From assembly GCA_030699355.1 (NCBI GenBank), contig JAUYMZ010000454.1:1-47078 (forward strand): a DNA stretch of 47,078 bases. Direction: 5' to 3'. Every line of letters starts with the position of its first letter. Positions within the stretch are counted from its first letter, which is position 1. The stretch is from Bacteroidota bacterium. Its GTDB lineage: Bacteria; Bacteroidota; Bacteroidia; UKL13-3. Made by a program: the position numbers and the translations under genes. Below, piece after piece: positions 1-21,923 of the stretch. The notes beneath the pieces are model-generated. The model saw only the letters and a list, made by a program, of their open reading frames with translations. It had not been told where the DNA came from and searched no databases.

Positions 1-1
1 C

Positions 2-1027
2 TTTGTTTGTCCACTCCCTTATTAATTGGTAGTACTTGCCAGATTTGTACTCATCACAAGCTACAGAGCCTTCTTTGCCATACAGGCCATCCGATTGGCT
101 TGCCCAGCCTGTTTCGCCAATATGAACGGGTTTATCTATGCCCAAAGATTGCATGTACTTAACTACGCTTAAGTATTGATTTTTGGCATAATAAAGTGAA
201 CGCAGCATCAGTGAGTCAATCATGACTTCTTTTGTGAATGTTGTTTCATTGGGTTTCACGCCCCAAAATACAGGATTGTAATGGGTATCATGCATTGGGT
301 AGGTATGTATAGAAACATAATCTACGGCTTGGTATAGTTTCTTTAAATCATCCACATGATACAAGGAATCGCCACCACCCCACGAGGCAAAATTATCTGA
401 AGAGCTAATCCAAAGCTCTTTAGGCAAAGCTCCTGTTGCTTTTAAATCTTGTAAATGCTTCACCCATTTTAAAATAATCTTAGGTTCAACATAATAACTT
501 GTTGCCCATTTTACCATGGCTTCATTGCCAACGGATATAATTTTTACAATATCCGCGTATTCGTTTGCTAGTTGAACCGCTCTTGCTATCTCAGTGGTAT
601 TTGCTTCTAAGTTTTCTTGCGTATGATTAGGTTCAGCCAGAGACCAAGCGTTTGCGCAATCTATCCAAGCCCCTAGCATTACATACATTTCAAAGCTTTG
701 CTGTTCTTTTTTTAAGCTTGTTATGGCTTTTAATAGGGTATCTATTTCAGTAAGTTTTGTGTTGTAGGTGCGGAGTATTTTAATACCCATTGCATGCATT
801 AGTTTTAAGTCGTCTTTAACTTGAGCTAGGCTTGGAACGATATCGCGTGTGTTGGTTCTATAACCACCGTAACAAATGGCCAAATAGTTTGAATCGCCTA
901 AAATTTGAGCCGCAGTTTTGGTATTGGCCGCTTGTGTTGCTTGCGTATTTTCGTTTCGAAAACTACATGAGTTTAGAATAATTGCTATTAATCCTACTAA
1001 AAAGTATTTTAAACCCAGCTTCAACAT
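2..1027 (-). CDS. GH17-like beta-1,3-glucanase/transglycosylase lipoprotein; the 3' end runs off the left edge of the window
   Basis: Not in the ORF track because no stop lies in the window. My translation from the ATG at 1025-1027 (minus) gives MLKLGLKYFLVGLIAIILNSCSF..., a lipoprotein box. It continues through ...ISVGNEAMVKW... (acid/base NE) and ...KPVHIGETGWASQSDG..., a near match to the GH17 E-[ST]-G-W-[PA]-[STN] nucleophile signature. Its start is 4 nt from the stop of the upstream gene. Confidence 0.7.
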   Translation of the reverse strand, partial: MLKLGLKYFLVGLIAIILNSCSFRNENTQATQAANTKTAAQILGDSNYLAICYGGYRTNTRDIVPSLAQVKDDLKLMHAMGIKILRTYNTKLTEIDTLLKAITSLKKEQQSFEMYVMLGAWIDCANAWSLAEPNHTQENLEANTTEIARAVQLANEYADIVKIISVGNEAMVKWATSYYVEPKIILKWVKHLQDLKATGALPKELWISSSDNFASWGGGDSLYHVDDLKKLYQAVDYVSIHTYPMHDTHYNPVFWGVKPNETTFTKEVMIDSLMLRSLYYAKNQYLSVVKYMQSLGIDKPVHIGETGWASQSDGLYGKEGSVACDEYKSGKYYQLIREWTNK

Positions 1028-1031
1028 GCCT

Positions 1032-4000
1032 TTATTTTAAGATAGACTTATTAATATGTACGGTAATTTTTGCTACTTCGCCTGTTCTGCAAAATATATC
1101 GGTACTTGTTGCCTTATCTAAAGAAAGGGATGGTTGTTGAATGATGGTGCCATCTTTCTTTTCAATTTCAAGGGAGTTTTCTTCAGATAAATTATAAACA
1201 ACCGGAATCTGACAATACGTAAAACATATGGAGCCTATTGGTGGCGCAAAGGTTTTATGTTCTTTATGGATAGTTACATAATGAAAGGTGCGTTCTTGTG
1301 TTGTAAACTCATCTTTGCGCAATAAGCAAGGATTAAAATACAAGCAACCTTCTGCCACAAAAACACCCAACTCGCCAAATCTGCTAAGTATATCTTCCTT
1401 TACCTGACCCGTCATGCCGGGTTGCTGCGCACCTTTGTTTGCAGGTGTGTGCGAGTATGGGTCGGTTGGGAAGGCACCATACAACGAGGGCGATTTATGT
1501 ACACCCACCCCAGCATTTATTTCGTAATAATGTTCCAATAATTTACCTGTTACTTCGGCAGATTCGTTTGCTGTTATCGCTTGTAAACATACTTCTTGAA
1601 CCGCCAATTGCAATTTAGAAACCATGTGCCAATAGATAGAACCAAGGCCTTCGTATCCATAAAATGTACCCGAACGTCCGGTAAATGATTTATGGTCGAA
1701 CACGGTTTCAAATAGGTCTAAAAACGACTGTTTTTCTTCCTGTATTAAGTCGCCATACTTTTGAGTATCTAAATTGGCAATGGCCTCACTTAAATCAGCC
1801 GCATTTTTAAAGATACCATTAAAATGATACACTCCTGTAATATCAAGCTCTACCAAAGTTTTGTCGCCCTTATCAAGCATCATTTTTATAAGCTTCGATT
1901 GTGCTATAGCAGATGCAGGTATCTTATTTTTCTCTAAAAATTTAGGTAGTTTTTTATTTGGGTACAACAAATAGCTATACTGGTCGGGACGAAACAACGC
2001 GCTTTGCTTCATGCTGTCTAGCAAATGTAAGGCATCTTTAGGAGATAAGTAACCAGAGCTTAGCACGGCTACTTGTCCTTCAAGCATTTCACTGAGGTAA
2101 GAAATCGCTACTTCATTTGAGTTTTGAAAGCTCATTAAGTTGTAAGAGTGATACATATTATCAGGGCGCTTATTGGCGGCAATTGTGTGCTCTGTAAACG
2201 CTATGCTTAGCTTCACAAATGCTTTTAATCGGCGGTACGAAATCGTTCTTTTCTCTCCCCAAAAAGAGAGTTTGTAAATGTGTTTTCTGTATTCGCTTCC
2301 TGCTTCACCTAAACTATCTAGTATTACTTTTCTTTGTTCATTGCTAATTTCGCCCTGCAATAAGTGCGCATTTTCTTCTAAAGTAGCATGAATCTTTTTA
2401 AAGAATATAATCAATTCGTTTGATAACTCTACGCGCTCGTCCTTGGTTTGTTCAATTAAGGTATCAAAAAACACCAAGAATCTTCTTAAATAGCAAAGGG
2501 TAACTACCGAAACGCCATTCCCAACCAAGGCATTGTTTGCATCGTTCCATTCTGGCCTTTGCGTATTCATCCAAATACCTGCGCCCGGAATAAAATTGGA
2601 GAGTTTAGCCAAAACGCTGGCGAGTATTTTTTCTATGAAGTTTACGGTATAAATCTTTTCGTTTTGAGCCAATAAAAGCGTTGCGTCTGAACCTATTGCT
2701 TCTCTGTTTTTCCTAATATGAGCATCCAATTCCTCATCAAACTCAATGGTATCTTTGGCGTTTTTAACAATCTCTTGGTAAGGCTTTATTTTGTAAGGTA
2801 CATTGGCATACACAAATTGTTCTAACTTAAATTGGCTACTCAACTGACCAGGAAAGTATTTCTCATTAATTTCTAATAATTTAAGCAAGTAAATAATCTG
2901 ATGATCGCCCCAATAACCAATATACGACCAAGGATTGTCTGGTTCAACCGTTTCCCAATCAAATCCGCCTTTTGTTAAGCGATAAGGATTGTATCCTTCA
3001 AAAGTAGTAGCATTTAAAAACTTATGAATCATGCTGCGGGTAAAGCCAGGAAAAGAAATAGATAAGGCTTCCCAATTTTGAAAAATATCTCTCCAATTTC
3101 CTTCGTAATCCAAGATTTTCGAATGGTCTACCGCACTGCGGGTATTAATAGAAAATTTATTCCAAGGCCTGCTCGGGTCGCCATGCCTTCTGCTAAACTT
3201 TAAAGGCAAGTATTCTGTGCAAAGCCTTTTAAAATCATTGTCGTTGGTTTGGGCATATAAGGCTTCTAGTTCAAAAACAGTAAATGTTTCTCCTAAGCTT
3301 TCTAATAATTGCTTGTGGTTTTCGTATACTGTTTTGTTGGCATTGGCTATAGATTTTATTAGGTCCCATTTTTCAATTTGGTAATTAAAATCAAAAATCC
3401 CGCCACGCATAATATTGAAGAGTGTATTGGCAAAATGCCTGGTATCTCTGTAAACATCCTTCGACAATTGAATGCCATCTGCTGAGGCATTTAATTCCAT
3501 TAAGCGGTCTGAACCAAGCGCTATATCATCTGTTACCTGCTTATTGAGGTTTTTGTTGTTTTTTATTTCATGTATAAGTTTTACAACATTGGCCTGACTT
3601 TGATTTACATCTGCCACAATCATCCATTGTTGTTGGCTACCTGCTGCCAAGGAGATTTTTTTATTAACGAAGTAAGCACCACGTTCTGCTTTTACATCTA
3701 ACTCTTGCACAATCGGAAGTCCTTTTCTAAAGGCATCGAGCTGCATGGAAGAAATTAAGTGTAAGGGATTATCCAATCCAAGAGACCAAGCTATATTGGC
3801 CATCAAGGCTTCACTTGGTTCAGCCTTATCTACAATAATGGCACTTAGGGCAAAAATACCCAAGCCAGAATCTAGGTCTAGTTCATTGCGTTTGTATGCA
3901 TCAACTAAATTGCTTGTGGCGTTTTGCAAATCACTGCTTACCCCATCGGGCATAATGTTTTGGATGCCATCTAAAATGTTTATAGTAAGCTCTCGGCCAC

Positions 4001-4484
4001 TATTGTTTAGCAACCACGATTTGCGCACAAAACCATATAGGTTACTCGAGTTCCATTCGTACCTAAATGTAAGTTCAAATTGGTGGTTTATTTCCTCGAA
4101 AATAATTTTGTTTCCAATGGCATTTTTATAAATATTCCGGGTAATGCGCTGTTGGGTAGCGTTGCGTTCAGAAAATGGTTCCCAGATATGGGTTTGCTCA
4201 TTTTGAATAACCTGAAAAATACTTTTAGAGCCAGTAGTATCGTATGCCTCTGTAATTTTATCTGCCGTGTAATAAGGAAACAAGGCGTATTCTGCGCTTT
4301 TGCGCCCCGCCGAAACGCCTCCATTGCTGGCAATGAACATCCAATGGTGAGAGTCGCTCACAATGCTCATAAAAAACGGACGAATTTGATCGTGATTGGA
4401 AATACAAAAGAAATTTTCGCCTTCTATTTTTAATCTTTTTATGGCAACTAAAGATGCTTCTTCAACTTGTTTTTGACCTGACAT
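1032..4484 (-). CDS. Large cytoplasmic (alpha/alpha)6-type glycoside phosphorylase-like protein; candidate GH94-clan (GH149/GH161-like) beta-1,3-glucan/oligosaccharide phosphorylase
   Basis: 1150-aa ORF with no signal peptide. It contains TQRPEWNDANNALVGNG (Asp648 codon at 2541-2543), resembling the catalytic W-N-D segment of GH94-type phosphorylases. Size and the GH16/GH17 neighbours fit what is reported for bacterial GH149 genes. The ORF is secure; the function is inferred. Confidence 0.55.
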   Translation of the reverse strand: MSGQKQVEEASLVAIKRLKIEGENFFCISNHDQIRPFFMSIVSDSHHWMFIASNGGVSAGRKSAEYALFPYYTADKITEAYDTTGSKSIFQVIQNEQTHIWEPFSERNATQQRITRNIYKNAIGNKIIFEEINHQFELTFRYEWNSSNLYGFVRKSWLLNNSGRELTINILDGIQNIMPDGVSSDLQNATSNLVDAYKRNELDLDSGLGIFALSAIIVDKAEPSEALMANIAWSLGLDNPLHLISSMQLDAFRKGLPIVQELDVKAERGAYFVNKKISLAAGSQQQWMIVADVNQSQANVVKLIHEIKNNKNLNKQVTDDIALGSDRLMELNASADGIQLSKDVYRDTRHFANTLFNIMRGGIFDFNYQIEKWDLIKSIANANKTVYENHKQLLESLGETFTVFELEALYAQTNDNDFKRLCTEYLPLKFSRRHGDPSRPWNKFSINTRSAVDHSKILDYEGNWRDIFQNWEALSISFPGFTRSMIHKFLNATTFEGYNPYRLTKGGFDWETVEPDNPWSYIGYWGDHQIIYLLKLLEINEKYFPGQLSSQFKLEQFVYANVPYKIKPYQEIVKNAKDTIEFDEELDAHIRKNREAIGSDATLLLAQNEKIYTVNFIEKILASVLAKLSNFIPGAGIWMNTQRPEWNDANNALVGNGVSVVTLCYLRRFLVFFDTLIEQTKDERVELSNELIIFFKKIHATLEENAHLLQGEISNEQRKVILDSLGEAGSEYRKHIYKLSFWGEKRTISYRRLKAFVKLSIAFTEHTIAANKRPDNMYHSYNLMSFQNSNEVAISYLSEMLEGQVAVLSSGYLSPKDALHLLDSMKQSALFRPDQYSYLLYPNKKLPKFLEKNKIPASAIAQSKLIKMMLDKGDKTLVELDITGVYHFNGIFKNAADLSEAIANLDTQKYGDLIQEEKQSFLDLFETVFDHKSFTGRSGTFYGYEGLGSIYWHMVSKLQLAVQEVCLQAITANESAEVTGKLLEHYYEINAGVGVHKSPSLYGAFPTDPYSHTPANKGAQQPGMTGQVKEDILSRFGELGVFVAEGCLYFNPCLLRKDEFTTQERTFHYVTIHKEHKTFAPPIGSICFTYCQIPVVYNLSEENSLEIEKKDGTIIQQPSLSLDKATSTDIFCRTGEVAKITVHINKSILK

Positions 4485-4540
4485 TATACTTATCTATTCC
4501 TAATTATTTTATAAACTAAATTATTCCCAAGGGTTATTGT

Positions 4541-5365
4541 TTATTTTTCCTTGTAAGCCCTTACATAATCAATTGTCATAGCACCCGGAAAAGGGGTAAA
4601 TTGGTTAGGTGGGCCAACAAAACTTCCGCCTACTGCTATGTTCATGATAATAAAAAATGGCTGATTAAATACCCACTCTCCGGGTACTTCCAAAGGTGTA
4701 ATTCTTCTATACAAATAACCGTCTACAAAGAAGTCTATTTTGCTTTCATTCCATTCAACAGCATATACATGAAAATCATTGTCGAACCTATCATTCTGAA
4801 GCGTGAATGGGGTGGTAATAGCTTGCCCTCCAGAATAACCCGGACCATGAATTGAGCCATAGGTAATATTTGAGAATTTACCCTTTTGTTCCATGATGTC
4901 AATTTCTCCGCATTGTGGCCAACTTACTGTTGGAATATTATTTCCCAACATCCAAAATGCCGGCCAAATACCAGAACCCGTCGGCGTTTTAATGCGCGCT
5001 TCTACCTTTCCAAACTGATGGGTAAATAAGCCCTGCGTTTTTACACGCGCCGAAGTGTAACTTCCATTATTGCTTTTTAATGCTGTGATAACCAAATTTC
5101 CCTTACCATCTAAAGAAACATTCGCTGGATTTTTGGTGTAGGTTTGCAATTCGTTGTTTCCCCAACCGTTCTGACCAGTGCCTAAATCATAAGTCCATTT
5201 TTCGGCATTGGGTAAGGTGGCAGAATCACCATCAAATTCATCACTCCAAACCAATTCAAAATTTCTTTCTGGTAACTTCTGTATGGGTTCAACCTTACAA
5301 CTTGCCATAACCGCTGCTATGGCGGCAATTAATATAACTGTATTCGAATTTTTCATTGACTTCAT
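4541..5365 (-). CDS. GH16 endo-beta-1,3-glucanase (laminarinase) lipoprotein
   Basis: Signal peptide plus lipobox (AAVMASC). GH16 catalytic motif E-I-D-I-M-E at aa 154-159 (nt 4889-4906), with WPAFWMLG just upstream. Confidence 0.9.
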   Translation of the reverse strand: MKSMKNSNTVILIAAIAAVMASCKVEPIQKLPERNFELVWSDEFDGDSATLPNAEKWTYDLGTGQNGWGNNELQTYTKNPANVSLDGKGNLVITALKSNNGSYTSARVKTQGLFTHQFGKVEARIKTPTGSGIWPAFWMLGNNIPTVSWPQCGEIDIMEQKGKFSNITYGSIHGPGYSGGQAITTPFTLQNDRFDNDFHVYAVEWNESKIDFFVDGYLYRRITPLEVPGEWVFNQPFFIIMNIAVGGSFVGPPNQFTPFPGAMTIDYVRAYKEK

Positions 5366-5388
5366 TTTAAAAAATTTAATGCTAATTA

Positions 5389-6810
5389 CTATTTATAAAA
5401 ATAAATATTATCTAAGATAAAATTGGGTCCGCCTGTAATAATAATGGCGCCAATATTGCCTTTTTGATTTAAAATACCTCCATTTAATGGAATATCAAAA
5501 GATTTCCAAACGCCACTTTGAAAGCCCGTTAAATTGGTTCTTACATCTCTATCATCTCCCATCGGATTGCCTGTATTTACATCTGTTTCTATGGTTTTGT
5601 TTGAACCTATATCTCTTATTTGAATACCAATGCTTGTGTTCGCATTTTCTACATAGGCATCTATGTGTATAAATCCAAGCGTAGAAGCATCTATAGGGTT
5701 TTCAGTGAACATAATACCTGTATAATTATTGTTGCTGTATTGTGCCACCTTGCCGGTGCTTGTATTTAAAATTTCTGTTATGGTTGTTGAGCCTCCAAAA
5801 TTGGGGGTAAAATTGCTAACAGTGGCATCGGTATAAGCATCGCTAAAAACAGATTTTACATCGGCTGCTGGTCTTGTTGGTACAGGCGAACCAACCAAGT
5901 CTCCTTTACATTCTACTGTTAATTTTCCTTTAGCAGCAACACCATTTACAGTGGCTGTAATATCAGCGGTACCCACAGCCAATGAGGTTACTACACCCGT
6001 TTCATTCACAGAGGCTACCGTTGGGTTAGAGCTGATAAAGTTATAATAAGCAGGGGTAGAAATTACGCTCACATCTTGCCCGGTTACCAAGTTATATACA
6101 TGGGTTAAACCTGTTATATTGATGGTTGAACCAATAAATGATTTAACAATACTTGTTTGTCCGTTTAAAATATTAGTGCTTGGTTTTCCTACTGTGCCAA
6201 GTTTTTCGAATTTAATTTCATCAAACCAAAGGGTATATCCTAAACCATTGGTTGCTTGTGTGCCTGCCGCAAACCAAAATACGCCTCTTTCATTTACTAA
6301 TTTTGATGGGTCTGGTATGGGAACAATAACTTTAGACCAACCTGTTCCCACATTGGTATTTTGAACCGTAACTTGGTATTTGTCGCCCAGGTAATCTATA
6401 CCAAAACCTACATCACCTAATATGGTTCCGGTAGAACCTTTAACGTAGAATGTAAGTGCGTCAAATCCGCTTAAGTTTCTGCCTGCACCATCTATTCTAA
6501 AAATAGCACCGGCGTAAGTGCCTGTTGGGTCTGTATTGTTGGGCACATCAATTCTAATAGAAGCATCACTTTTATAGCCTTCTTTCATATCCACTGAAAA
6601 CACATCTGGTTTTGCATCGGCAAATGGGAAATAAAAGTTTGAACCTAAACCAATAAAGTTATCGGTAAAAATTTCGCCTGTGCTTGAAAATTTAGGTAAA
6701 ACAGCGTCGTCAGATAATTTTCTTTCGCACCCTAATTCAAAAATAAGAATGAAAGCTAACAAACTTAAATGGAAGGGTTTTTTATTTAAAATATTCATCG
6801 TTTTCTTCAT
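5389..6810 (-). CDS. Surface glycan-binding lipoprotein: CBM-like beta-sandwich, Big_2 Ig-like domain, second CBM-like domain
   Basis: Lipobox (FELGCE). The N-terminal module ends ...GYTLWFDEIKFEKLG. The Big_2-like segment is ISSNPTVASVNETGVVTSLAVGTADITATVNGVAAKGKLTV. The C-terminal module begins SVFSDAYTDATVSNFTPNFGG, typical of glycan-binding modules in flavobacterial glucan loci. No catalytic motif seen. Confidence 0.6.
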   Translation of the reverse strand: MKKTMNILNKKPFHLSLLAFILIFELGCERKLSDDAVLPKFSSTGEIFTDNFIGLGSNFYFPFADAKPDVFSVDMKEGYKSDASIRIDVPNNTDPTGTYAGAIFRIDGAGRNLSGFDALTFYVKGSTGTILGDVGFGIDYLGDKYQVTVQNTNVGTGWSKVIVPIPDPSKLVNERGVFWFAAGTQATNGLGYTLWFDEIKFEKLGTVGKPSTNILNGQTSIVKSFIGSTINITGLTHVYNLVTGQDVSVISTPAYYNFISSNPTVASVNETGVVTSLAVGTADITATVNGVAAKGKLTVECKGDLVGSPVPTRPAADVKSVFSDAYTDATVSNFTPNFGGSTTITEILNTSTGKVAQYSNNNYTGIMFTENPIDASTLGFIHIDAYVENANTSIGIQIRDIGSNKTIETDVNTGNPMGDDRDVRTNLTGFQSGVWKSFDIPLNGGILNQKGNIGAIIITGGPNFILDNIYFYK

Positions 6811-6828
6811 TAAAAAGTAAGCATGTTA

Positions 6829-9800
6829 TTAATTATTGATATTTATTTGGGTATACACTCTAAATTCCCATTCGTTTCCATTCGGGAATCCAATCACATT
6901 TGGATCAGGAACCATTATGCCACTAGAGTTTAACATAAAAGCTGGAGCATATCTATTAGAGTATCTATCCAATGTGCGGAAAGTTCCTCTAAATCCTAGC
7001 TTAGTTCCTGGCATCAAGAACCAATCTGGTTTGCCAATTTCTATAGACCAATCTCCAATAAGTTGAAGTGGGAAGGTTTGGTTAAAATCTCGGTGATAGT
7101 CAAACGGACCCCAATCGTCAATTCTTACAATGGTCATCAGTTTCATTTTTTTGTAAATGGTTCTAACGTCAACGCCATATCTATTAATGGTTCTGGCATC
7201 ACTTCCGTTTGCTTGTCCGTTACCAAAATAAATGTTTCCAATAACACCAAATTCTGGGCTAATTTTTGAAACCAATCTGGTGTTAACTTCCCATAAATCT
7301 TGCGCTGGAGCTGAACCTGGGAATACAAAGGTGGTTCTACCATTTCCTAAAATACCAATGGCTGCGTCTTGCACGGTAGGTAAGTGGCGATACACAAAAC
7401 CTGCACTCATGGCAAACTTGGCATCTTCCATTCTATCATTGTCCCATTCGTACATCCAAGTAGCAGGTGTTGGGTCAAACGTAAGTAATAATTCTCCACC
7501 AACTGTTTCTCTATTTCCTCTTACAGAAAAGGGATCATCCAAAATGTTTCTTGGCCTAGCAGGTGCTGCAAAATTTGGGCCTATGGGTCCTACCAATGGT
7601 CTTTGATATAGAAAATTTGGTGCTATCTGAAATTTGCCAATGTTATAGGTAACTCCTGTTAAGGCATTGTACATGTTTCCGCTTCCTACATCTTTTAATA
7701 CCCAACCTGTAAAAGTTTTTGTTTGATCCACTCCTCCGTTGGCTACCAAACCCATATAAGAGGCTAGTCCGTACCAACGTATTGAACCAATAGAATAGGT
7801 AAGTTTTACTTTTCCGCCAAGGTTATCGGTAGTTTGTATTTTATCTTCATATACGGTGTTGTTTTCAACCATTTGAAAGGCTCTTCCAACAAGGGGTTGC
7901 CCGCCCCAAATGCCACCTACATCAAAGGTAAGTTTTTCCAACTTTTTGGCTACCACAAAGGTTAATCTCCTTGTTTTAGGCACGGGTACAGCAAACGAAC
8001 TTTGTAAATTGGTTCGTTGTACAATATCTTCATGGAAGATACCGGTTAGGTCTAAACCAGCTACTTTTTTACTGTACTTTACCAATACTGCTGGGTTTGC
8101 TCCCCACCATAATTCTGGGCCAAATGCTACTTTTAAACCTTTGAGTTTTCTTTTGGCTTCCATTTCAAAACCAAAGGGTGCATTACCGTTATAAATATCT
8201 ATGTTCGGACCATAATTTGCTTCTGGATATAGGCCAAAAAAATCGCCTTCATATCCCCAATGGTAATGGCCTGTTCTGTAAAAGCCGGTTAATTTAAATT
8301 CTTTTGCATCCCAACTGTAACTGGCTCTATATAATTGTAACCTGTTGTTATCTGAAATTTGTACCGGTCCATTGGGTGTGGCCACAGTAATTGGGCGACC
8401 TCTATTTTCGTAGAATATTTCGTCTATTGGATTGGTGGCTACATTACCTAAAAGGTTAAACTGAACGTTTGCCCGCATGTTTGGAGCCGGATTAGCGGTA
8501 ACGCCAATATTAAATGACTGCATGTGGTCAAAACCTTGCGCGTTGGGAAAGCCTGCGGCATTGGCAGGGTTGGAAGCTACAGGCGTGGAGGTTAAACTTC
8601 CACCCGTTTGGTAGGTGGTGAAATTAGCTTGTAGGTTGCTTAAATATAATTTGCCTTTATCTTTTGATTCTAATACTGCCTTATCACCCCTTGCCTTTAA
8701 TGCAAAATCGGCATTAGAAATACCATTAAAAAAGGTATTCATGGCTGCCATGTTTCCAGTGTATGGGTTATACCTATGTACATATTGCAAGGCATAATAA
8801 GCAGCTCTAGGATATAACTCGTAATTTCCTCTTTCGTTGGTTTGTCCTTTGGCGCATATTCCAAACCACTCTTCGTTCATGTTGTTTTCGCCGTTCACAA
8901 AATCGTTTTTGTAACCCCCGTTCGACCACGATGCGGTTGCGTCGTGAATATCTAGGTTTACCGTTTGGCCCGTTTTCCACCAGCCATCGCTAAATTGAAA
9001 GGTAAAACCGCCTAAACTATTGTCGTTATTGCCCATTCCGGCAGCGTTTTCGTAAATTCCTTTCCAATTGCTTACCAATACTTTTGCTTGATATTCTTGG
9101 TCTTCTTGGTTGGCAACCGTGTTATAGGCATCTGCTCCAAATTCGGTTAATAAAACCGGCATGTTTAAGTCCTTCTTTACTTTATCAAATAAATCGGTAA
9201 AGGTAGCACCACGGTATACGTTAATACCCAAAATATCTACGTCTTTACATTCTTTGGCAATGATATTTGAAAACAGTAAGTCGCCATTACATATGGCAAT
9301 AGGGTGATTGTTGCTTATTTGCTTTAATTCTTTAGCAGCATCATTAAAAAGCTTGTACAAATGCATAGCATCTTTGGTAGAGTTACGGTCGGCAAAGGGA
9401 ATATTTTCTGTTTCGGCACCTCTCCAAAATAGTCCGTAATTGTTCTCATTACCCAATAAAAAAAGCAAGATGCCGGGGGTTTCTTTGTATTGGGCTACCA
9501 TCTCTTTGGTTTCATTCAATAATAATTCACGTACTAGCGGACTAGAATAATCTGTAATAGCTTCCCACTTGCCTTTTACGGTTAATCCATATCTACCAAA
9601 AGAGTGGTTGAGCATGGTGTAAATACCGTAATTTTCGTATATATATTTAACCCATTTTGCTGGCACACCTGTATATTGGCGGATGGCATTCACCCCCATG
9701 TTTTTGAGCAGCGACATTTCATTATCAAGGGCAGCCATAATTACATCATCAGATTGATTCCATAAACTGTAATTGTAATTGGTTCCAACCGGAAAATAAT

Positions 9801-9948
9801 CCCAGTTCATTCCGTAAATGAAAGTTTCTTTTCCGTTTACCAAAAGTTTAAACCCGCTACCAGCTTTGGAAACTAGCACTTTATCGCCCTGAGCGAGCGT
9901 AAGTAATGGTGCAAGAAGTAAAAGACATTGAAGTAGAATTTTTCTCAT
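6829..9948 (-). CDS. Secreted clan GH-A (GH2/GH5/GH158-like) TIM-barrel glycosidase domain fused to a roughly 600-aa C-terminal beta-barrel-like domain
   Basis: Signal peptide (LLAPLLTLAQG). Acid/base LLGNENNY (E168 codon at 9445-9447) and nucleophile VLLTEFGAD (E269 codon at 9142-9144), about 100 aa apart as in clan GH-A. From about aa 430 to the end there are many amphipathic, aromatic-rich strand-like segments, such as RRLTFVVAKKLEKLTFDVGGIWGG, GGKVKLTYSIGSIRWYGLASY, NRYGVDVRTIYKKMKLMTIVRIDDWG and NEWEFRVYTQININ. Confidence 0.6.
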   Translation of the reverse strand: MRKILLQCLLLLAPLLTLAQGDKVLVSKAGSGFKLLVNGKETFIYGMNWDYFPVGTNYNYSLWNQSDDVIMAALDNEMSLLKNMGVNAIRQYTGVPAKWVKYIYENYGIYTMLNHSFGRYGLTVKGKWEAITDYSSPLVRELLLNETKEMVAQYKETPGILLFLLGNENNYGLFWRGAETENIPFADRNSTKDAMHLYKLFNDAAKELKQISNNHPIAICNGDLLFSNIIAKECKDVDILGINVYRGATFTDLFDKVKKDLNMPVLLTEFGADAYNTVANQEDQEYQAKVLVSNWKGIYENAAGMGNNDNSLGGFTFQFSDGWWKTGQTVNLDIHDATASWSNGGYKNDFVNGENNMNEEWFGICAKGQTNERGNYELYPRAAYYALQYVHRYNPYTGNMAAMNTFFNGISNADFALKARGDKAVLESKDKGKLYLSNLQANFTTYQTGGSLTSTPVASNPANAAGFPNAQGFDHMQSFNIGVTANPAPNMRANVQFNLLGNVATNPIDEIFYENRGRPITVATPNGPVQISDNNRLQLYRASYSWDAKEFKLTGFYRTGHYHWGYEGDFFGLYPEANYGPNIDIYNGNAPFGFEMEAKRKLKGLKVAFGPELWWGANPAVLVKYSKKVAGLDLTGIFHEDIVQRTNLQSSFAVPVPKTRRLTFVVAKKLEKLTFDVGGIWGGQPLVGRAFQMVENNTVYEDKIQTTDNLGGKVKLTYSIGSIRWYGLASYMGLVANGGVDQTKTFTGWVLKDVGSGNMYNALTGVTYNIGKFQIAPNFLYQRPLVGPIGPNFAAPARPRNILDDPFSVRGNRETVGGELLLTFDPTPATWMYEWDNDRMEDAKFAMSAGFVYRHLPTVQDAAIGILGNGRTTFVFPGSAPAQDLWEVNTRLVSKISPEFGVIGNIYFGNGQANGSDARTINRYGVDVRTIYKKMKLMTIVRIDDWGPFDYHRDFNQTFPLQLIGDWSIEIGKPDWFLMPGTKLGFRGTFRTLDRYSNRYAPAFMLNSSGIMVPDPNVIGFPNGNEWEFRVYTQININN

Positions 9949-10097
9949 TTTGTATTAATTATTTTGTTTATAAACTTAATTTTTTTCGAAACGTTATGCT
10001 TGGTTTTGGGGCTTGGATTTTTCTGTTTTTTGGCTAATTTTTTTAATTATGGTAAAATTTACAATAACCAAATTAAAGAATAAAATTAGTAACAATC

Positions 10098-10105
10098 CAA
10101 ATTTA
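10098..10105 (-). promoter_or_regulatory. Candidate Bacteroidota -7 box (TAnnTTTG) for the glucan operon
   Basis: Plus-strand caaattta is TAAATTTG on the minus strand. It is the only exact TAnnTTTG match I found on that strand in the 444-bp gap upstream of the start at 9948. No clear -33 TTTG partner. Confidence 0.2.
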
Positions 10106-10392
10106 TTTTTTGATTAAGAAAAAATATTGCCGAGAAAAGCTGTTTTGGGTGACCTAGATAAAGGCAAAAGAATGAGCTACAAAAACCCATATCAAATATT
10201 TGAGGCCAAATCTGGACTTGTGTAATTTATACCTGAGCCAATGTAACAACAGAACAAAAGTGCAACAATCAGATATGCTTCTTAATTTCACATTTCTGTA
10301 TATAAAAAGTATCCAATAATACATATACTTTATCCTATTTTTTACTTACTACCTGCAAGGATTAAAGGTTTGGTTCAAGCCGAACCAACTTT

Positions 10393-11409
10393 TTAGTTAA
10401 TGTTTGCTATGCGCTTATCTATCATTTTAAACCACAAAGGCGGTATGGCAGCTACAAAGAACATGCCCGCGTAGCCGCTGGGCAATTGCCTGCCTTGCTC
10501 ATAACTTTGAAGGGTGTGGTAGGGTTTAGCCGCATGGTAATGGTGGTCGGCATGACGACTCAAATCTATTAATACAAATCTACTTACGGGCACATCGCTT
10601 TGCCAGCTATGCCATTCTGTAACCCGCTCATTTTCTTTTCGGGTTAGTCCGTAATGTTCTATGTAATTAACATATTCTAGCAGAAAATTGGCCGCTACGC
10701 AATGTAATACAAAACCCAAAAGAGCTATTGGTCCGAACCAAATGATAATAAAGGTATCGAATAAGAGGTGCAGAATTACTTGCCTCAGCACATAATGTTG
10801 CAGGGTCCAAATGGATTTATTTGCTTTTTTCAGGCGTTCAGATTCTAATTTCCAAGCGCCCTTAATCTGACCCAAACCACTTCTTAAAAAGAAAGCATAC
10901 AAGTTTTCTCCTTTTTTAGCGGTGGAAGTATCTTTGTTGGTTCCTACCCATTTGTGATGCACTTGCAGGTGCTCTATATAAAAATAAAAATTGCCTGCGC
11001 TAAAGAGTAGCCATTTTCCTAAGAAGCGCTTTAACTGCGATTTACGGTGTATCAATTCATGCGCCACCACAATAGCAGCAGAGCCAGAATTTACACCCAT
11101 GCTTATGGCTGCTATGGCTATCCATATTCCGTTTAGCAGGTGTGTGTGTACAGCGTAAAAATAACTTATGATACAGAGTAGTTGGGCGGGTATGTGTAAG
11201 TATAAAATCAGGTTGGGCAGTTTATCTGTGGTTGCACTGGTGGTGTTATTCCTGATGGGTTTTAAAAGCCATTCTGCTGCCGCTAAAATACCCAATGAAT
11301 AGATGGCGTTTAAAGCAGACCATATTTCTCCTTGCATATTGCCATATATTACGGCAATACTTGGCGTTAAACTTAAAAGATAGGCTAGATTTCTGTAACT
11401 TGCTTTCAT
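10393..11409 (-). CDS. alkB: AlkB-type integral-membrane di-iron alkane 1-monooxygenase / fatty-acid-desaturase superfamily protein
   Basis: Four AlkB hallmark boxes are present: HELIHR, EHLQVHH, NYIEHYGL (AlkB-specific) and LSRHADHHYH. Multiple hydrophobic TM segments. Confidence 0.75.
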   Translation of the reverse strand: MKASYRNLAYLLSLTPSIAVIYGNMQGEIWSALNAIYSLGILAAAEWLLKPIRNNTTSATTDKLPNLILYLHIPAQLLCIISYFYAVHTHLLNGIWIAIAAISMGVNSGSAAIVVAHELIHRKSQLKRFLGKWLLFSAGNFYFYIEHLQVHHKWVGTNKDTSTAKKGENLYAFFLRSGLGQIKGAWKLESERLKKANKSIWTLQHYVLRQVILHLLFDTFIIIWFGPIALLGFVLHCVAANFLLEYVNYIEHYGLTRKENERVTEWHSWQSDVPVSRFVLIDLSRHADHHYHAAKPYHTLQSYEQGRQLPSGYAGMFFVAAIPPLWFKMIDKRIANIN

Positions 11410-11642
11410 AATTATATATCAAAGCTATGTTTTATTTTTATCTTATTCAATAGTTCTGTATTGTGCTTATTTTTTTGTTTTTACATTGGTTTATTCTTGT
11501 TTGTTTATTATTGTGAGAGTGCCCATCAAGGCAAAAGCAAAATATTTGCATGTTTTGGAGGGTGACTTATAAGAATAATCTAGCAATAGTTTAGAAGTAG
11601 CGCTTCAATTATTGCTTCATTTTTTTAACTAGGATATGGAAA

Positions 11643-12200
11643 CTACTTACCTCCTCTTATGGCACTCGCTCTAAGCGGTTTTATATTAAAAAGTGTAGCT
11701 AAACACCATTCTAAAATTTGAAAAAACCGAATAAATTCAAGTACCGGGTTAAGGTAATTGGTAATGATACAATAATTCATACTGTAGGGCGATTGATGGT
11801 GTTGGCCGTGGTGTTTTCTTGATTGAAGAAGTCCTATACTTTGTAAATAACAAATTAACCTGCCATTTTCTTTGTCGGATTGATGCGCTTTCCTGTGTAT
11901 TTCATTTGATTGAGAAGCCAATGCAATACAGGCTGCATAAAAGAAACTGAACCAACCAAAAAGAAGTGGTATGGCAATTAAAATAATACCTGTTATAATG
12001 CTCGTGTTATTTCTTTGCCAATAGTTTCCTTTTAAGAATGCCCTTGGCTCATGGTGATGAAGTAAATTGGGTTGAACAATATGTTTACCCAAAACTGGCC
12101 AATTGGGATTGCCATAGGTGTCTTCCCACCAATGAAATAATCCTGATAGGAAGTCGGCACATAATAAAATTGCCAAAAATTGAAATGGTAGTAATAACAT
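11643..12200 (-). CDS. CarF/TMEM189 (PEDS1)-type lipid desaturase domain protein
   Basis: 185-aa membrane protein with His clusters FHWWEDTYG, LLHHHEP, EIHRKAHQ and RKHHGQHHQSPY. This matches the histidine-rich pattern of the CarF/TMEM189 lipid desaturase domain. Confidence 0.6.
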   Translation of the reverse strand: MLLLPFQFLAILLCADFLSGLFHWWEDTYGNPNWPVLGKHIVQPNLLHHHEPRAFLKGNYWQRNNTSIITGIILIAIPLLFGWFSFFYAACIALASQSNEIHRKAHQSDKENGRLICYLQSIGLLQSRKHHGQHHQSPYSMNYCIITNYLNPVLEFIRFFQILEWCLATLFNIKPLRASAIRGGK

Positions 12201-12459: not shown

Positions 12460-14391
12460 GTGTTGAAATACCTTAAAAGTCTACTCCTGTTTGCCCTGTT
12501 ACTAGCATTCCAAGCTAAGGGAAATACTGGTTATTATCCGGGAACCGTATTATTACACCTAGATAGTATCGATAATAAATTATTTAAAGAGCAATGCTCT
12601 GAGGAAAGATTTTACGCGATTGTTTACGATTTTAACTACACCCTTATTAGGTCTTTAATACCGCTTGAAGATGCTAGGGCATACCTCAAGTTTTTAAGAA
12701 CATGTATTGTGCTTAGACCTGAATTTGGTAAATACACTTATTTAGTAGATTTGGCCGAATCTTCGCTCTTACACCTCTGTAAAGACGTTCAAAAATTTAA
12801 TAAGCATCATCAGTCTGTAAAAGAAAAATGGCTGAACCAAGCTACCTTAGGTTATTTTTTAGAATATGAATTGGGATTGGGAAATTTCTTGGTCTTTAAT
12901 GGTGATAGGGAGTTAGCCCTTAAATCTTACCGAAATGTGGAGGGTATTATAGAAAATAATGGCTTTAAAAACTTAGAAAACAATTCAAAAATACTTGCCA
13001 TTGTAAACGCTAATGCATTGGCAGTATGTTTTAGAGAGCTATACTTGTTAGATTCGGCAGAATTCTATTTTAAGCTGGGATTACAAAGAGCTAATTTACT
13101 GAACCGAGCAGATTGGCAAGGCATTATTTCTGGTAATTTAGCTGAATTTCAAATACGAAATGGCCACACAGAATTCGCAGAGGAATTATTAATTACAGAC
13201 TATAAGCAATCGCTTAAAACCAATCAAATTGGTAGTGCCATTAACGCCCTTTTAACCTTAATAGATTTATATATCCTGAACCAAAACTTTGCTAAGGCCA
13301 ATCAAACTTACGATACCGCCTCTCAGTTAATTAGTAGGGTTGAACCCACTTTTAATGATGGCTTACCGGAGTTTAAAAACGGACTTCTACTTCGTGCCAT
13401 TAAGCTGGGTTTGGTAAAAGGTACAAGCACCGAGGCATTGCGTTACCTCGATAGTTTATACCAAATAGTAAGAAAAGAAAAAAACAAAGAAACGCATTCA
13501 GATAGATACGTTATTGAAGATAATCTGAGCAAACTGGTGTCTTTAAGAGAAGAGCGTAAAAGAATTAGCTATATTATTATTGCTTTTTCTCTTCTTATGA
13601 TTTTAGCCATTATAATGGCTTTTTTGCAAAGGCGATACAACCAAATCTTGACCCAGAAAAACGACGAAATTAAGCAGCAAAGCAAAAACCTAGAGCGCCT
13701 CAATCAACAAAAAAGCAAACTATTCTCGGTGGTTGCGCACGATATTAGAGGTCCTATTGGTAGCTTACAAGGTCTTTTAGAATTGTATGCCGAAAAACAA
13801 ATCTCAGAATTAGAACTGATGGAATACAGCCAAGGCATTGGCGATAATTTAAACAGCTTAAACACCATGTTAGATAATCTCTTAAACTGGGCCAGAACCG
13901 GCATGGAGAATGGCATAGTGCCCAGTTTTTCTGAGATAGATTTGGGAGAATGCTGCCAAGAAATTATCACCCATGTTAGCCCTCAACTGGCCAAGAAAAA
14001 TCTGCTTCTCCACTTTCAGAGCACAGAAAAAATATGGGTTCAGACCGACCCTGCCTTATTAACGGTAATTATTAGAAACCTCTTGCACAATGCCATTAAA
14101 TTTTCTGAACCCAATACGCCCATACATTTGGTTTTATCAGCCAACCAAGAGGCCAAAAGGGTGGATATTTCTATTGCAGATAAGGGCCAAGGAATGAGTC
14201 AAGAAAGCCTAAACCAAATACTGCACGCCAACACCGGGGTAATAAGCAAGCCGGGCACCCAAGGAGAACGAGGCACAGGCTTGGGCCTTATGTTATGCAA
14301 AGAATTTACCTTAGCATTAAAGGGAACCTTTTCTGGCAAAAGCACCCCAGGTATAGGAACAACATTTACTGTTTCTTTGCCTTTGGGTTGA
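12460..14391 (+). CDS. Sensor histidine kinase with N-terminal TPR-like extracytoplasmic region; no adjacent response regulator
   Basis: GTG start followed by a signal peptide. A long helical-repeat region, then one TM segment (ISYIIIAFSLLMILAIIMAF). HisKA H-box FSVVAHDIRGP and HATPase_c N/G boxes (LLHNAIKFS, DKGQGM, GTGLGL). Confidence 0.85.
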   Translation: MLKYLKSLLLFALLLAFQAKGNTGYYPGTVLLHLDSIDNKLFKEQCSEERFYAIVYDFNYTLIRSLIPLEDARAYLKFLRTCIVLRPEFGKYTYLVDLAESSLLHLCKDVQKFNKHHQSVKEKWLNQATLGYFLEYELGLGNFLVFNGDRELALKSYRNVEGIIENNGFKNLENNSKILAIVNANALAVCFRELYLLDSAEFYFKLGLQRANLLNRADWQGIISGNLAEFQIRNGHTEFAEELLITDYKQSLKTNQIGSAINALLTLIDLYILNQNFAKANQTYDTASQLISRVEPTFNDGLPEFKNGLLLRAIKLGLVKGTSTEALRYLDSLYQIVRKEKNKETHSDRYVIEDNLSKLVSLREERKRISYIIIAFSLLMILAIIMAFLQRRYNQILTQKNDEIKQQSKNLERLNQQKSKLFSVVAHDIRGPIGSLQGLLELYAEKQISELELMEYSQGIGDNLNSLNTMLDNLLNWARTGMENGIVPSFSEIDLGECCQEIITHVSPQLAKKNLLLHFQSTEKIWVQTDPALLTVIIRNLLHNAIKFSEPNTPIHLVLSANQEAKRVDISIADKGQGMSQESLNQILHANTGVISKPGTQGERGTGLGLMLCKEFTLALKGTFSGKSTPGIGTTFTVSLPLG

Positions 14392-14530: not shown

Positions 14531-17500
14531 TTACTTTATCATTTCGTGTTTGGTTCTATTAAATAGCCAAAATATAATTGGGAAAACTAAAAGTGTCAAA
14601 ATGGTTGCCGTAATCAGTCCTCCGATAATTACAATGGCTAAGGGTTTTTGAGATTCTGAACCAATACCTGTACTCAAAGCGGCTGGTAAAAGTCCTATTG
14701 AAGCCATAAGTGCCGTCATCACCACCGGTCTTGTTCTTACTTTTACGGCTTCCATTATTGCTCCATTCAAACCTAAATTTTCTTTTAGGTTTTTATGAAA
14801 TTCGGAAATAAGGATTACGCCATTTTGAATGCAAATTCCAAACAAGGCTATAAAACCTACACCGCCCGAAATTCCAAAGTTGGTACCGGTAATATGCAAT
14901 GCCATAATACCGCCAATGATTGCAAATGGTACATTTGTAAGTACTAAAAGCGAATCTTTTATATTGCCAAACAGAATAAATAACAATATAAAAATACCTG
15001 CCAAGCTAATAGGCACCATTTGTCCCAATGTGCCTGTGGCTCTAACTTGATTTTCAAACTCGCCTGTCCAACCAATACTATACCCTTGAGGAAGTTCTAT
15101 TTTGTTTTCTACATTTTTTTGAGCCTCGGCTATCGTACTTCCTAAATCCCTATCACGTACAGAAAACTTTACCCCAATAAATCGCTTCGTATTATCTCGG
15201 TAAATAAAGGCTGGTCCAGTTACTTTTTTAATGGAGGCTATTTCTTTTAAAGGAATTTTGTGCCCTTGAATGGTCGGCACTTTTAGGTTGCTAATATCTC
15301 GCTCGTTTTTGCGATAGTCTTTATTATACCGCACTCGAACATCAAATTTCTTTTCGCCCTCAAATTTTTGAGTGGCCGTTTTACCTCCAAATGCCATTTC
15401 TAATACCGCTTGTGCATCGGCTACTTTAACCCCATAAGCAGCCATACGTTCTCTATCTAATATTACACTCACTTCGGGCTGACCTACATTTCTCAATATG
15501 CCTACATCTTTTATTCCTTCTACATTTTCTATTTGTTTGATTACTTTATTGGCTATTTCATCTAATTTCTCTAAGTCATCGCCATAAATTTTCACAGCAT
15601 TAGAGGCATTAATACCTGCCACACTTTCAGCCACGTTATCAATAATAGGTTGTGAATAATTATAACCAATTCCTTGATATTTAGTCAAAGAATCGTCCAT
15701 TTCTCGAACCAAATCGTCCATTGTTATTTTTCGTTTCCATTCGTCTTTGTGTTTCAGGTTTACCTGCATTTGCACATAATAAAAACCACTTGGATCGGTG
15801 CCGTCATTACTTCTACCTACTTGACTAAGCACCCCATTTACTTCTGGAAATTTCTGTAATTCTTTTCTTAAAATAGCTGTTTTTTCGACCGTTTCAGGAA
15901 GACTTTGACTCATCGGGAATTTGGCTTCTACCCACAAAGCACCTTCATTAAGCTGAGGTAAAAACTCAGTGCCTAAAAATTTGGCAGAAAAGAATGTTAT
16001 TACAATGATTGAGATTGTTACGATTAAACTTTTTCTTTTATTTCTAAATGTCCAAGCAAATCCATTTTCTACTATTCTATTCCAAAAGTTTACGAACGGA
16101 TTGTGCTTTTCTTTGACATTTTTATTGAGTAAAATATGGCTCAAAACGGGGACTAATGTTAAGGTAAAAATTAATGCCCCTAATAAGGCAAAACCTAAAG
16201 TGTATGCCAATGGCGAAAACATTTTTCCTTCCACTTTTTGAAAGGCAAAAATGGGTAGTAAGGCAGTAATTATAATCAATTTTGAAAAGAAAATGGCTTT
16301 CCCCATCTCAACACCTGTTTTTTTGATAATCTGTCCTTTGGCTAATTTATTATAGGCTGCCATTCCTTTTTTGTGAGCTAAATGGTCGAGGGTTACAAAA
16401 ATCCCTTCCACCATCACCACCGCACCATCTATAATAATTCCAAAATCTACCGCTCCGAGTGACAATAAATTGGCACTCATTCCTTTTAGTTTCAAGCATA
16501 AAAAAGCGAAAAGAAGCGAAAGAGGAATGATAATAGAAACTATAAATGTGGTACGCCAATCGGCCATAAACAAAAACACAATAACCGTTACAAACAAAAT
16601 CCCTTCCAACATATTGTGCATTACGGTAGTGGTGGTATAGTTCATCAGATTGTCGCGGTCGTAGAAAGTTTCCATTTTTACATCTTTGGGCAAAATGCGT
16701 TCGTTGAGTTCGGCAATTTTTTCTTTAATTCTACCCAAAACTTCTTTAGGATTTTCGCCTTTTCGCATTACCACAATTCCTTCTACCACATCATCATTTT
16801 CATTAAGCCCCACTTGGCCTACTCTTGGCATAGCACTTTCAAATACATCGGCTACATTTTTTACTAAAATAGGGTTTCCACCGGCTTCGTCAATAATGAT
16901 ATTTTCTATATCCGAAATGCTTCCTAATAAACCAACACCACGCACTACATAAGCTTGTCCGTTTTTTTCAATTATATCGCCACCCACATTGATATTACTT
17001 TGATTAACGGCATCATAAACTTGTAAGGGTGTGATATTGTATTTTGATAATCGGTTGGGGTCAACACTTACTTCATAAGTTTTTTCTTGTCCGCCAAACG
17101 CCACCAAATCAGCTACACCAGGCACCGAACGCAACTGGCGGTCAATAGTCCAGTTTTGAATGGTAAGCAATTCTCTTGAATCTCTGTTAGGGCTTTTGAG
17201 CGTGTAGCGAAATACTTCTCCTGTTGGGCCATAGGGAGGCTGTACATCTGGCGTTACATCATCTGGAAGAGATACATTACGCAACAAATTGTTGACTTGT
17301 TGCCTTGCGAAAAAATCTTCCACCCCATCTTCAAAAATGATTTTGATTACAGAAAGTCCAAACATCGTAATGCTACGTACACTCGTTTTTTTCTGTACCG
17401 AATTCATAGCTATTTCCACTGGTGTGGTTACAAATCGCTCAATTTCTTCTGCACTTCTGCCATTCCATTCCGTTACAATGATTATTTGTGTATTGGTAAC

Positions 17501-21843: not shown

Positions 21844-21923
21844 TATTCATTATTTGAAAGTGTAATATTGAGAAGTTTACCTTTAGGCAACCTTAATATT
21901 TGGCTTAAAAATACCTTAAAGGA

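Follow-up and report, generated by a model that had tools for sequence, protein, structure and literature searches.

The standard teaching on Bacteroidota is that they take up glycans by a TonB-powered process carried out by SusC and SusD. The stretch of DNA analyzed here (the window; 47,078 nt, contig JAUYMZ010000454.1 of the Bacteroidota bacterium assembly GCA_030699355.1) carries an operon of putative beta-1,3-glucan genes without such a pair, and the question it raises is how the glucan would cross the outer membrane (OM). The first gene of the operon is a whole open reading frame (ORF) that occupies 6829..9948 of the minus strand, opens with ATG and encodes 1039 amino acids (aa) before its stop. 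Its product is deposited in GenBank as MDP3930523.1 under the label 'MAG: glycosidase [Bacteroidota bacterium]'. It joins an N-terminal clan GH-A glycosidase domain, a putative glucanase, to a C-terminal domain predicted to be an OM beta-barrel, and is referred to below as the GH-barrel protein. An initial annotation, made from the letters of the DNA, had proposed a surface beta-glucanase joined to its own translocation pore. We consider it fairly likely that the protein as a whole is an OM glycan channel with a tethered periplasmic glucanase, working in a beta-1,3-glucan pathway that lacks SusC/SusD.

The C-terminal domain and the glycosidase domain

Sequence searches did not assign the C-terminal part of the protein to a family. 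At E<=10, aa 416-1039 (624 aa) gave zero Pfam matches, and NCBIfam together with Pfam left the barrel unmatched in both the full protein and the isolated C-terminal domain. A PDB sequence search of the domain at E<=10 returned one chance-level match, to a LacI-type regulator (E 0.4), and the PDB family-profile search left the domain unmatched. When 34 barrel sequences were searched one by one against Pfam at E<=1, no relevant family was found, only four single-member chance matches; the sugar porin profiles LamB, OprB, OprD/ChiP, KdgM and AlgE were unmatched in all 34.

The structure of the C-terminal domain was predicted on its own with AlphaFold2. The model is wholly beta, with a predicted local distance difference test score (pLDDT) of 80.7 and a predicted template modeling score (pTM) of 0.80, and DSSP assigned it 24 long antiparallel strands of 10-18 residues each. 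The strand connections alternate, the even-numbered ones being mostly 2-3 residues long (8/11) and the odd-numbered ones 7-36. Short turns alternating with long loops are the signature of OM barrels. Hydrophobic residues and glycine make up 76% of one strand face and 43% of the other, and the amphipathic, strand-like pattern described in the initial annotation is therefore real. The richness in Gly, Tyr, Trp and Phe that it also described stands only in part. There is slightly more Gly (10.5 vs 8.8% in the N-terminal domain) and Phe (6.3 vs 5.0%), whereas Tyr (4.5 vs 6.5%) and Trp (2.3 vs 2.5%) are not enriched.

The model was compared with solved structures in the PDB using Foldseek. All 50 matches listed are OM barrels, each with probability 1.00, and include BtuB, FepA/PfeA, ZnuD, ChuA, OprC, MOMP, LptD, FimD and MtrB. 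AlgE, Wzi, beta-sandwiches and propellers are absent from these 50 matches. Template modeling scores (TM-scores) reach only 0.3-0.42, the highest being to the 26-strand MtrB, and therefore the domain has no close solved relative. These results favor an OM barrel over the beta-sandwich or propeller that the initial annotation had held in reserve, and suggest that the C-terminal ~600 aa (aa 434-1039; 6832..8649, minus strand) form a predicted OM beta-barrel of ~24 strands belonging to an unannotated family.

The initial annotation had doubted the barrel on account of its C-terminus (...VYTQININN), which lacks a terminal aromatic residue. The observation is correct: the window protein and its Bacteroidota relatives end in ...YIQININN or ...INIGK. 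The classical OM beta-signal is a C-terminal aromatic-x-Phe, and nearly all proteobacterial members of the family, fused or stand-alone, end in this way (...Y.F). The last strand of the window protein (aa 1024-1037, GNEWEFRVYTQINI; 6838..6879, minus strand) aligns with the ...Y.TYSF beta-signal of these proteobacterial homologues. A carbohydrate-selective porin of the OprB family on the same contig (18064-19416, minus strand; Pfam E 1.5e-32) also ends without a terminal aromatic (...RLHARI). Because the proteobacterial members end in aromatic-x-Phe and the OprB porin ends in Ile, the objection is weakened.

Conservation within the barrel is highest outside the strands, at aa 556-595 (FYxxxxYHWGYEGDFFGL...), at WWGA 614-617 and at GLVA 733-736. 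The first of these (FYRTGHYHWGYEGDFFGL...APFGFE; 8164..8283, minus strand), which lies in the long loop after strand 5, is the most conserved motif of all, with F556, H563, W564, G568, D569, D584 and G593 invariant. Further conserved segments are DDPF.V..NRE at 804-814 and aa 825-845. Aromatic and acidic residues line sugar-specific channels. By analogy, the conserved aromatic and acidic loops probably form a sugar-selective constriction, for which the aa 556-595 motif is a candidate. The near-invariant 21-aa segment DPTPATWMYEWDNDRMEDAKF (aa 825-845; 7414..7476, minus strand) occupies the connection of strands 16 and 17 on the turn side, a position at which one would expect a short turn in the periplasm, and it is conserved in fused and stand-alone forms.

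No TonB plug, TonB box, TonB_dep_Rec or CarboxypepD_reg was found in the window protein or in the 34 barrel sequences (Pfam, E<=1 to 10). The same search found Plug, TonB_dep_Rec and CarboxypepD_reg in the true SusC-like TonB-dependent transporter of a related locus (L076, 7856-10903, plus strand). With no plug or TonB_dep_Rec match, the protein was rejected as a SusC or other TonB-dependent transporter.

The N-terminal part begins with a signal peptide, recognized by eye from the sequence (aa 1-19, MRKILLQCLLLLAPLLTLA; 9892..9948, minus strand). The mature protein would start at Q20 and has no lipobox, so that MRKILLQCLLLLAPLLTLA/QG reads as a signal-peptidase-I signal. Residues 20-411 (8716..9891, minus strand) form a clan GH-A (beta/alpha)8 glycosidase domain similar to glycoside hydrolase (GH) families GH158 and GH157, as judged by Pfam, PDB sequence search and Foldseek. 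The Pfam match, to GH2_C (GH2 TIM barrel), is marginal (E 1.9e-4). The best PDB sequence match is GH158(Pro) (9oro), with E 8e-5 for the single sequence and 7.8e-8 for the family profile; in the profile search BuGH158 (6pal) came next at 2e-7, followed by GH2 beta-galactosidases. The GH158 sequence match is weak and partial, being confined to aa 131-280. In the full-length AlphaFold2 model (pLDDT 81.2, pTM 0.71), DSSP assigned alternating strands and helices to aa 24-400, a (beta/alpha)8 fold. Foldseek ranked GH158 first (E 1.5e-13) and GH157 laminarinase second (E 1.8e-12), then GH2 glucuronidases, the matches to GH158, GH157 and GH2 TIM barrels spanning E 1e-13 to 1e-8.

The catalytic motifs GNENNY and LLTEFG start at aa 166 and aa 266 and place the two glutamates at E168 and E269, as the initial annotation had stated. 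Both align with the catalytic glutamates of GH158(Pro), E168 (9445..9447, minus strand) as putative acid/base and E269 (9142..9144, minus strand) as putative nucleophile. The aligned positions in GH158(Pro) are 86 residues apart in the chain, as are Glu143 and Glu229, the published catalytic pair (PMC13195107). Both glutamates, with the motifs GNE(N/S)NY and EFG, are invariant in 57/57 aligned fused homologues, which come from Bacteroidota and Proteobacteria and share ~35% identity. The conserved catalytic motifs, together with the sequence and fold matches to GH158 and GH157, therefore suggest that the domain is probably an active, retaining clan GH-A enzyme whose closest known relatives cut beta-1,3-glucans, in agreement with the initial annotation.

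Membership in GH158 itself is not established. Like BuGH158 (6PAL) and GH158(Pro) (9ORO), the domain is a clan GH-A (beta/alpha)8 barrel with aligned NE and EFG catalytic glutamates, and like them it is found in beta-1,3-glucan loci with GH16, GH17 and GH149. The identity by Foldseek is only ~15%, however, and the window protein differs from them in its signal-peptidase-I signal without a lipobox and in its predicted membrane barrel of 600 aa. GH158 enzymes also have a C-terminal domain of immunoglobulin (Ig)-like type, with eight strands, packed on the TIM barrel (PMC13195107), which is not seen here; DSSP of aa 311-433 gives short strands and helices, and then the barrel begins. The GH157 laminarinase LaGH157 (9G4N) is likewise a beta-1,3-glucan enzyme, but its sequence match to the window protein is not significant and its accessory domains differ. 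Since the similarity to GH158 is weak, the substrate specificity is inferred mainly from gene context, and the endo-beta-1,3-glucanase activity of the domain is putative.

Gene context and relatives of the fusion

The GH-barrel gene heads a tight minus-strand operon whose successive gaps are 18, 23, 56 and 4 nt. Its immediate neighbor (5389..6810) encodes a 473-aa lipoprotein (lipobox LGC) with a Big_2 domain between beta-rich regions, a putative glycan-binding protein. The next gene (4541..5365) encodes a 274-aa GH16 lipoprotein of laminarinase type, assigned by Pfam (GH16, 3.8e-25) and synteny. It is followed by a 1150-aa GH149 beta-1,3-oligoglucan phosphorylase without a signal peptide (1032..4484; PDB 6hq6, 1622 bits; PMC5827456). 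The last gene encodes a GH17-type lipoprotein cut by the window start (2..1027; 342 aa seen), 68% identical to the Pfam-GH17 gene of a close relative, locus L085. Upstream of the operon lies a 444-nt A+T-rich intergenic region (9949..10392, minus strand), presumed to be the promoter region.

The fusion is widespread. More than 5400 protein clusters match the full-length window protein, and the best 120 are full-length relatives with 73-99% identity, so the feature is far beyond chance. After clustering at 50%, the barrel domain has 482 matching representatives. When each species was represented by a single genome, at least 594 loci with a GH-barrel relative were found, and the locus counts given below rest on the best 80 of these. 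All 80 are of Bacteroidota type (Flavobacterium, Chryseobacterium, Cloacibacterium, Algoriphagus, Chitinophagaceae, Saprospiraceae, Cytophagales and Bacteroidales). Cultured carriers are Flavobacterium franklandianum, F. degerlachei, F. terrisoli, Chryseobacterium aquaticum, Cloacibacterium rupense and Algoriphagus species; F. franklandianum LB3P56 and C. aquaticum C-174 are individual carrier strains. The same fusion occurs in proteins whose source names are Chromatiales, Leucothrix, Desulfuromonadales and Oceanipulchritudo. Database labels for the family are currently 'glycosidase', 'GH2 TIM barrel-domain protein' and 'hypothetical'.

The gene order GH-barrel, lipoprotein with carbohydrate-binding module (CBM)/Ig features, GH16, GH149, GH17 recurs in essentially all 80 Bacteroidota loci, a comparison in which the GH17 column was left out of account. 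In nearly all loci that extend far enough, the gene directly downstream of the GH-barrel gene encodes a homologue of the partner lipoprotein. SusC/SusD genes are absent from the 47-kb window, and among the related loci L076 is alone (1/80) in encoding a SusC-like transporter no more than 10 kb from the GH-barrel gene. The absence of SusC/SusD noted in the initial annotation thus extends to 79/80 related loci. In L085 the operon continues with GH30 and with a fusion of a major facilitator superfamily (MFS) transporter to GH17 (21737-23135, plus strand; 782 aa, cut by the locus end), and a Chitinophagales locus has similar gene content. In ~40/80 loci a protein of ~940 aa with Reg_prop, Y_Y_Y and GerE/LuxR domains is encoded just upstream of the GH-barrel gene, for example in L038 (6890-9709), L047 (6768-9620) and L011 (6807-9701). 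Three of these proteins were scanned with Pfam, and the others were called by visual comparison of ORF length, location and common end motifs. Reg_prop, Y_Y_Y and LuxR make up the architecture of the beta-glucan regulator BguR (bioRxiv 10.64898/2026.01.10.698779). No BguR-type regulator gene is present in the window.

Proteobacterial-clade members also sit among glucan genes. One fused member, on a 1.58-Mb metagenome contig (L086), is flanked by a 4171-aa GH16/CBM protein and a GH149-like gene, with Entner-Doudoroff enzyme genes downstream of the latter. The 4171-aa protein (1-9985, plus strand) is encoded immediately upstream of the fused barrel gene and has GH16, CBM4_9 and CBM30 matches.

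In some Gammaproteobacteria the barrel occurs without an enzyme domain, as a protein of ~575-600 aa; MDP6969521.1 is an example. These stand-alone barrels have their own signal peptide (A-x-A/RGPD sites, by eye), and their first residues are directly at strand 1. It is this stand-alone occurrence that decides in favor of the barrel as an independent unit. Stand-alone barrel loci contain LacI, GH16, GH1, glucokinase and an ATP-binding cassette (ABC) importer of the SBP_bac_5/Opp type. Maltoporin (LamB) and chitoporin (ChiP) are likewise encoded beside sugar importers that depend on a binding protein. A split arrangement, in which a stand-alone barrel would work with a separate GH158-like protein, was rejected since the surroundings of the stand-alone barrels, out to 10 kb, are free of GH158-like genes. 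The linker motif ALKARGDKA of the Bacteroidota proteins (aa 416-424; 8677-8703, minus strand) aligns with the A-x-ARGPDLP cleavage region of the stand-alone barrels; the motif may be the remnant of an earlier N-terminus, or the match may be fortuitous.

Role of the barrel and placement of the enzyme

Because the barrel exists without an enzyme domain and beside an ABC sugar importer, it is better read as a glycan channel than as an enzyme exporter. The same observation speaks against the proposal that the barrel is the translocation pore of its own enzyme. The side of the membrane on which the enzyme lies was judged from the models. Strand 1 starts on the short-turn (2-3-residue) side of the barrel, and the short-turn side is periplasmic in all solved OM proteins. 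The linker between the domains (aa 412-433; 8650..8715, minus strand) includes a helix at aa 412-429 whose pLDDT is 79-91 in the full-length model vs 38-56 in the barrel-only model. Since the helix is confident only when the glycosidase domain is present, it seems to be packed on that domain and not in the lumen, contrary to a lumen-spanning linker. Linker length ranges from 38 to 62 residues, and there is little sequence conservation between clades. Taken together, the side of strand 1, the pLDDT shift of the helix and the variable linker place the enzyme in the periplasm with reasonable probability and make the surface location of the initial annotation unlikely.

In the reading we favor, the barrel would be the OM passage for laminarin-derived oligosaccharides. 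The enzyme (aa 20-411) would be suspended from strand 1 at the edge of the barrel that faces the periplasm, and would cut incoming chains on their way out of the pore. The GH16 lipoprotein and the CBM/Ig lipoprotein, both assumed to be on the cell surface, would capture and nick the polymer, and the GH17 lipoprotein would trim the fragments further. In relatives, GH30 and the MFS-GH17 fusion would trim and import small oligosaccharides. The cytoplasmic GH149 would convert oligosaccharides to glucose-1-phosphate by phosphorolysis. The whole system would stand in for the SusC/SusD TonB-dependent importer of canonical Bacteroidota loci.

A further step is more speculative. The wide barrel might admit long chains, which the tethered glucanase would shorten, and hydrolysis would give direction to an enzyme-ratcheted, TonB-independent import. 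GH158(Pro) is endo-processive (PMC13195107). We offer the ratchet tentatively, as less probable than not.

Several points weigh against a periplasmic enzyme tethered to a channel. The TM-scores to solved barrels are low, and barrel closure, strand count and domain orientation are deduced from DSSP strings, Foldseek matches and analogy. An unplugged 24-strand barrel would leak; candidates for closing it are the loops, the 825-845 segment and the partner lipoprotein. An 18-residue helix right before strand 1 has the look of the lumen helix of an autotransporter. One homologue (P0254) carries a CBM4_9 module N-terminal to its glycosidase domain, and modules of this type are met more often in enzymes that are secreted or lie on the cell surface. 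The similarity to GH158 is weak, as seen in the ~15% identity and the single-sequence E of 8e-5. The family is known here from sequence, predicted models and gene context, and no OM proteomic data on it were found in the open-access literature and bioRxiv searched.

The helix and the CBM4_9 module are also what would be expected if the glucanase were displayed on the cell surface, the alternative that survives best. Here an autotransporter-like barrel would pass the helix through its lumen, the glucanase would act outside on polymeric laminarin, and the pore or the linker space would admit the products. The helix ends 4 residues before strand 1, in the order of a type Va autotransporter, and PMC7157763 presents the distantly related BuGH158 as a cell-surface glycosidase. 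The window barrel, however, has ~600 aa and ~24 strands, not the ~280 aa and 12 strands of type Va autotransporters; it does not match the autotransporter Pfam models, PF03797 included, and it is conserved without any passenger. Identity with a type Va autotransporter was rejected on these grounds, the order of enzyme, helix and barrel being the shared trait. Surface display in a wider sense also has against it that the helix is confident only in models with the glycosidase domain, that the linker of 38-62 residues is unconserved between clades, and that the operon already has a candidate surface endo-glucanase in the GH16 lipoprotein. We know of no solved barrel of >16 strands that exports its own N-terminal domain, which likewise weighs against display. 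We regard surface display as unlikely.

It is more doubtful still that the barrel is an anchor only. It would then tether the glucanase, and perhaps the partner lipoprotein, and sugars would enter via general porins or a TonB-dependent transporter encoded elsewhere. This would fit with the OprB-family porin at 18064-19416 on the contig and with a visible genome of 47 kb, and the pore is so far an inference. Yet the stand-alone barrels tether nothing and still adjoin ABC sugar importers and GH16 genes. Conservation peaks in the aromatic and acidic loops and not in an anchoring surface, and 600 aa is costly compared with a lipid tail. An anchor without a channel is therefore improbable.

That the barrel is the porin of a secretion system for a beta-glucan exopolysaccharide, with a built-in periplasmic hydrolase as in BcsC/BcsZ, PgaA/PgaB or AlgE/AlgL, is very improbable and was rejected: BcsC, PgaA and PelB are indeed built of an N-terminal periplasmic module and a C-terminal barrel, but all loci examined are catabolic (GH16, GH17, GH30, GH149, MFS or ABC importers, LacI, glucokinase, Entner-Doudoroff enzymes), none of them contains glycosyltransferase or synthase genes, and TPR, AlgE and BcsC Pfam models are unmatched. 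A soluble beta-sandwich or propeller array is equally remote and was rejected on the model of the C-terminal domain, Foldseek and the turn/loop pattern: the window protein lacks a terminal aromatic residue and porin Pfam models are unmatched, but every Foldseek match listed is a membrane barrel, strands of 10-18 residues alternate with turns of 2-3, and homologues end in aromatic-x-Phe.

Comparison with known systems and other features of the window

An OM glycan channel with a tethered periplasmic glucanase resembles several known systems in part. LamB/ScrY, ChiP and OprB share the proposed role, being substrate-selective, TonB-independent channels of catabolic operons that feed an ABC or MFS importer. 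Unlike them, the window barrel is fused to an enzyme and has no sequence or Pfam relationship to them. Classical sugar-specific porins have 14-18 strands, compared with ~24 predicted here. SusC is also a large barrel, and TonB-dependent transporters are among the top Foldseek matches listed. Like SusC, the GH-barrel protein is encoded by the first gene of a glycan locus with a lipoprotein gene directly next to it, and in many loci it shares a BguR-type regulator. It differs from SusC/SusD in having no plug, TonB box or CarboxypepD_reg, and its partner is a Big_2/CBM-like lipoprotein and not SusD. BcsC, PgaA and PelB likewise combine the two modules in a single polypeptide that passes a glycan chain. 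Their barrels have 16-18 strands. Theirs is an export context with TPR modules, whereas that of the GH-barrel protein is an import context with a hydrolase, and there is no sequence match.

The MFS-GH17 fusion of Formosa is also a laminarin-pathway transporter fused to a glucanase, and its authors called it unprecedented (Unfried et al. 2018, PMC6246565). The same fusion is found in the L085 operon. It is an inner-membrane alpha-helical transporter and not an OM barrel, and the GH-barrel fusion is its OM counterpart. No description of the GH-barrel fusion or of the stand-alone barrel was found in open-access full texts and bioRxiv. Where papers report 'GH158' next to GH149 in marine loci, they may be counting such fusions with the barrel unnoticed. 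The GH-barrel protein would be a substrate channel from an unannotated barrel family that is covalently fused to a glycosidase.

Other features of the window are recorded here. Directly upstream of the operon (10393-12200, minus strand) are two adjacent membrane desaturases, an FA_desaturase (338 aa) and a Lipid_desat/CarF-like protein (185 aa). The adjacent histidine kinase (12460-14391, plus strand) matches part of DUF6377 weakly, at a score below the cutoff. The OprB porin gene is accompanied by resistance-nodulation-division (RND) efflux genes, namely AcrB (14531-17632), a membrane-fusion protein (19507-20586) and OEP (20590-21843), and by a histidine kinase/response regulator pair (21924-23956). 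An ORF of 3482 aa (28053-38501, plus strand) has a type IX secretion C-terminal sorting domain (aa 3404-3479) as its sole Pfam match. ARAGORN called a 90-nt tRNA-Arg(gcg) (42323-42412, minus strand) inside a PAS-histidine-kinase ORF (41968-43725), between the HisKA and HATPase domains; this call is probably a false positive.

The turnover of laminarin weighs heavily in the carbon cycle of aquatic environments. The conserved operon without SusC/SusD is present in at least 594 species-representative genomes. If the channel role is true, the barrel would define a new OM protein family, and the fusion a new transporter-enzyme architecture. Surveys that rely on SusC/D pairs would then overlook a whole group of organisms that use beta-glucan, many of which come from metagenomes of ponds, lakes and reactors. 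The family would also offer a tractable system for studying TonB-free passage of long glycans across the OM. If the more tentative enzyme-ratcheted import is true as well, it would be a second, SusCD-independent paradigm of polysaccharide uptake in Bacteroidota, common to Gammaproteobacteria and, by source names, to at least two other phyla.

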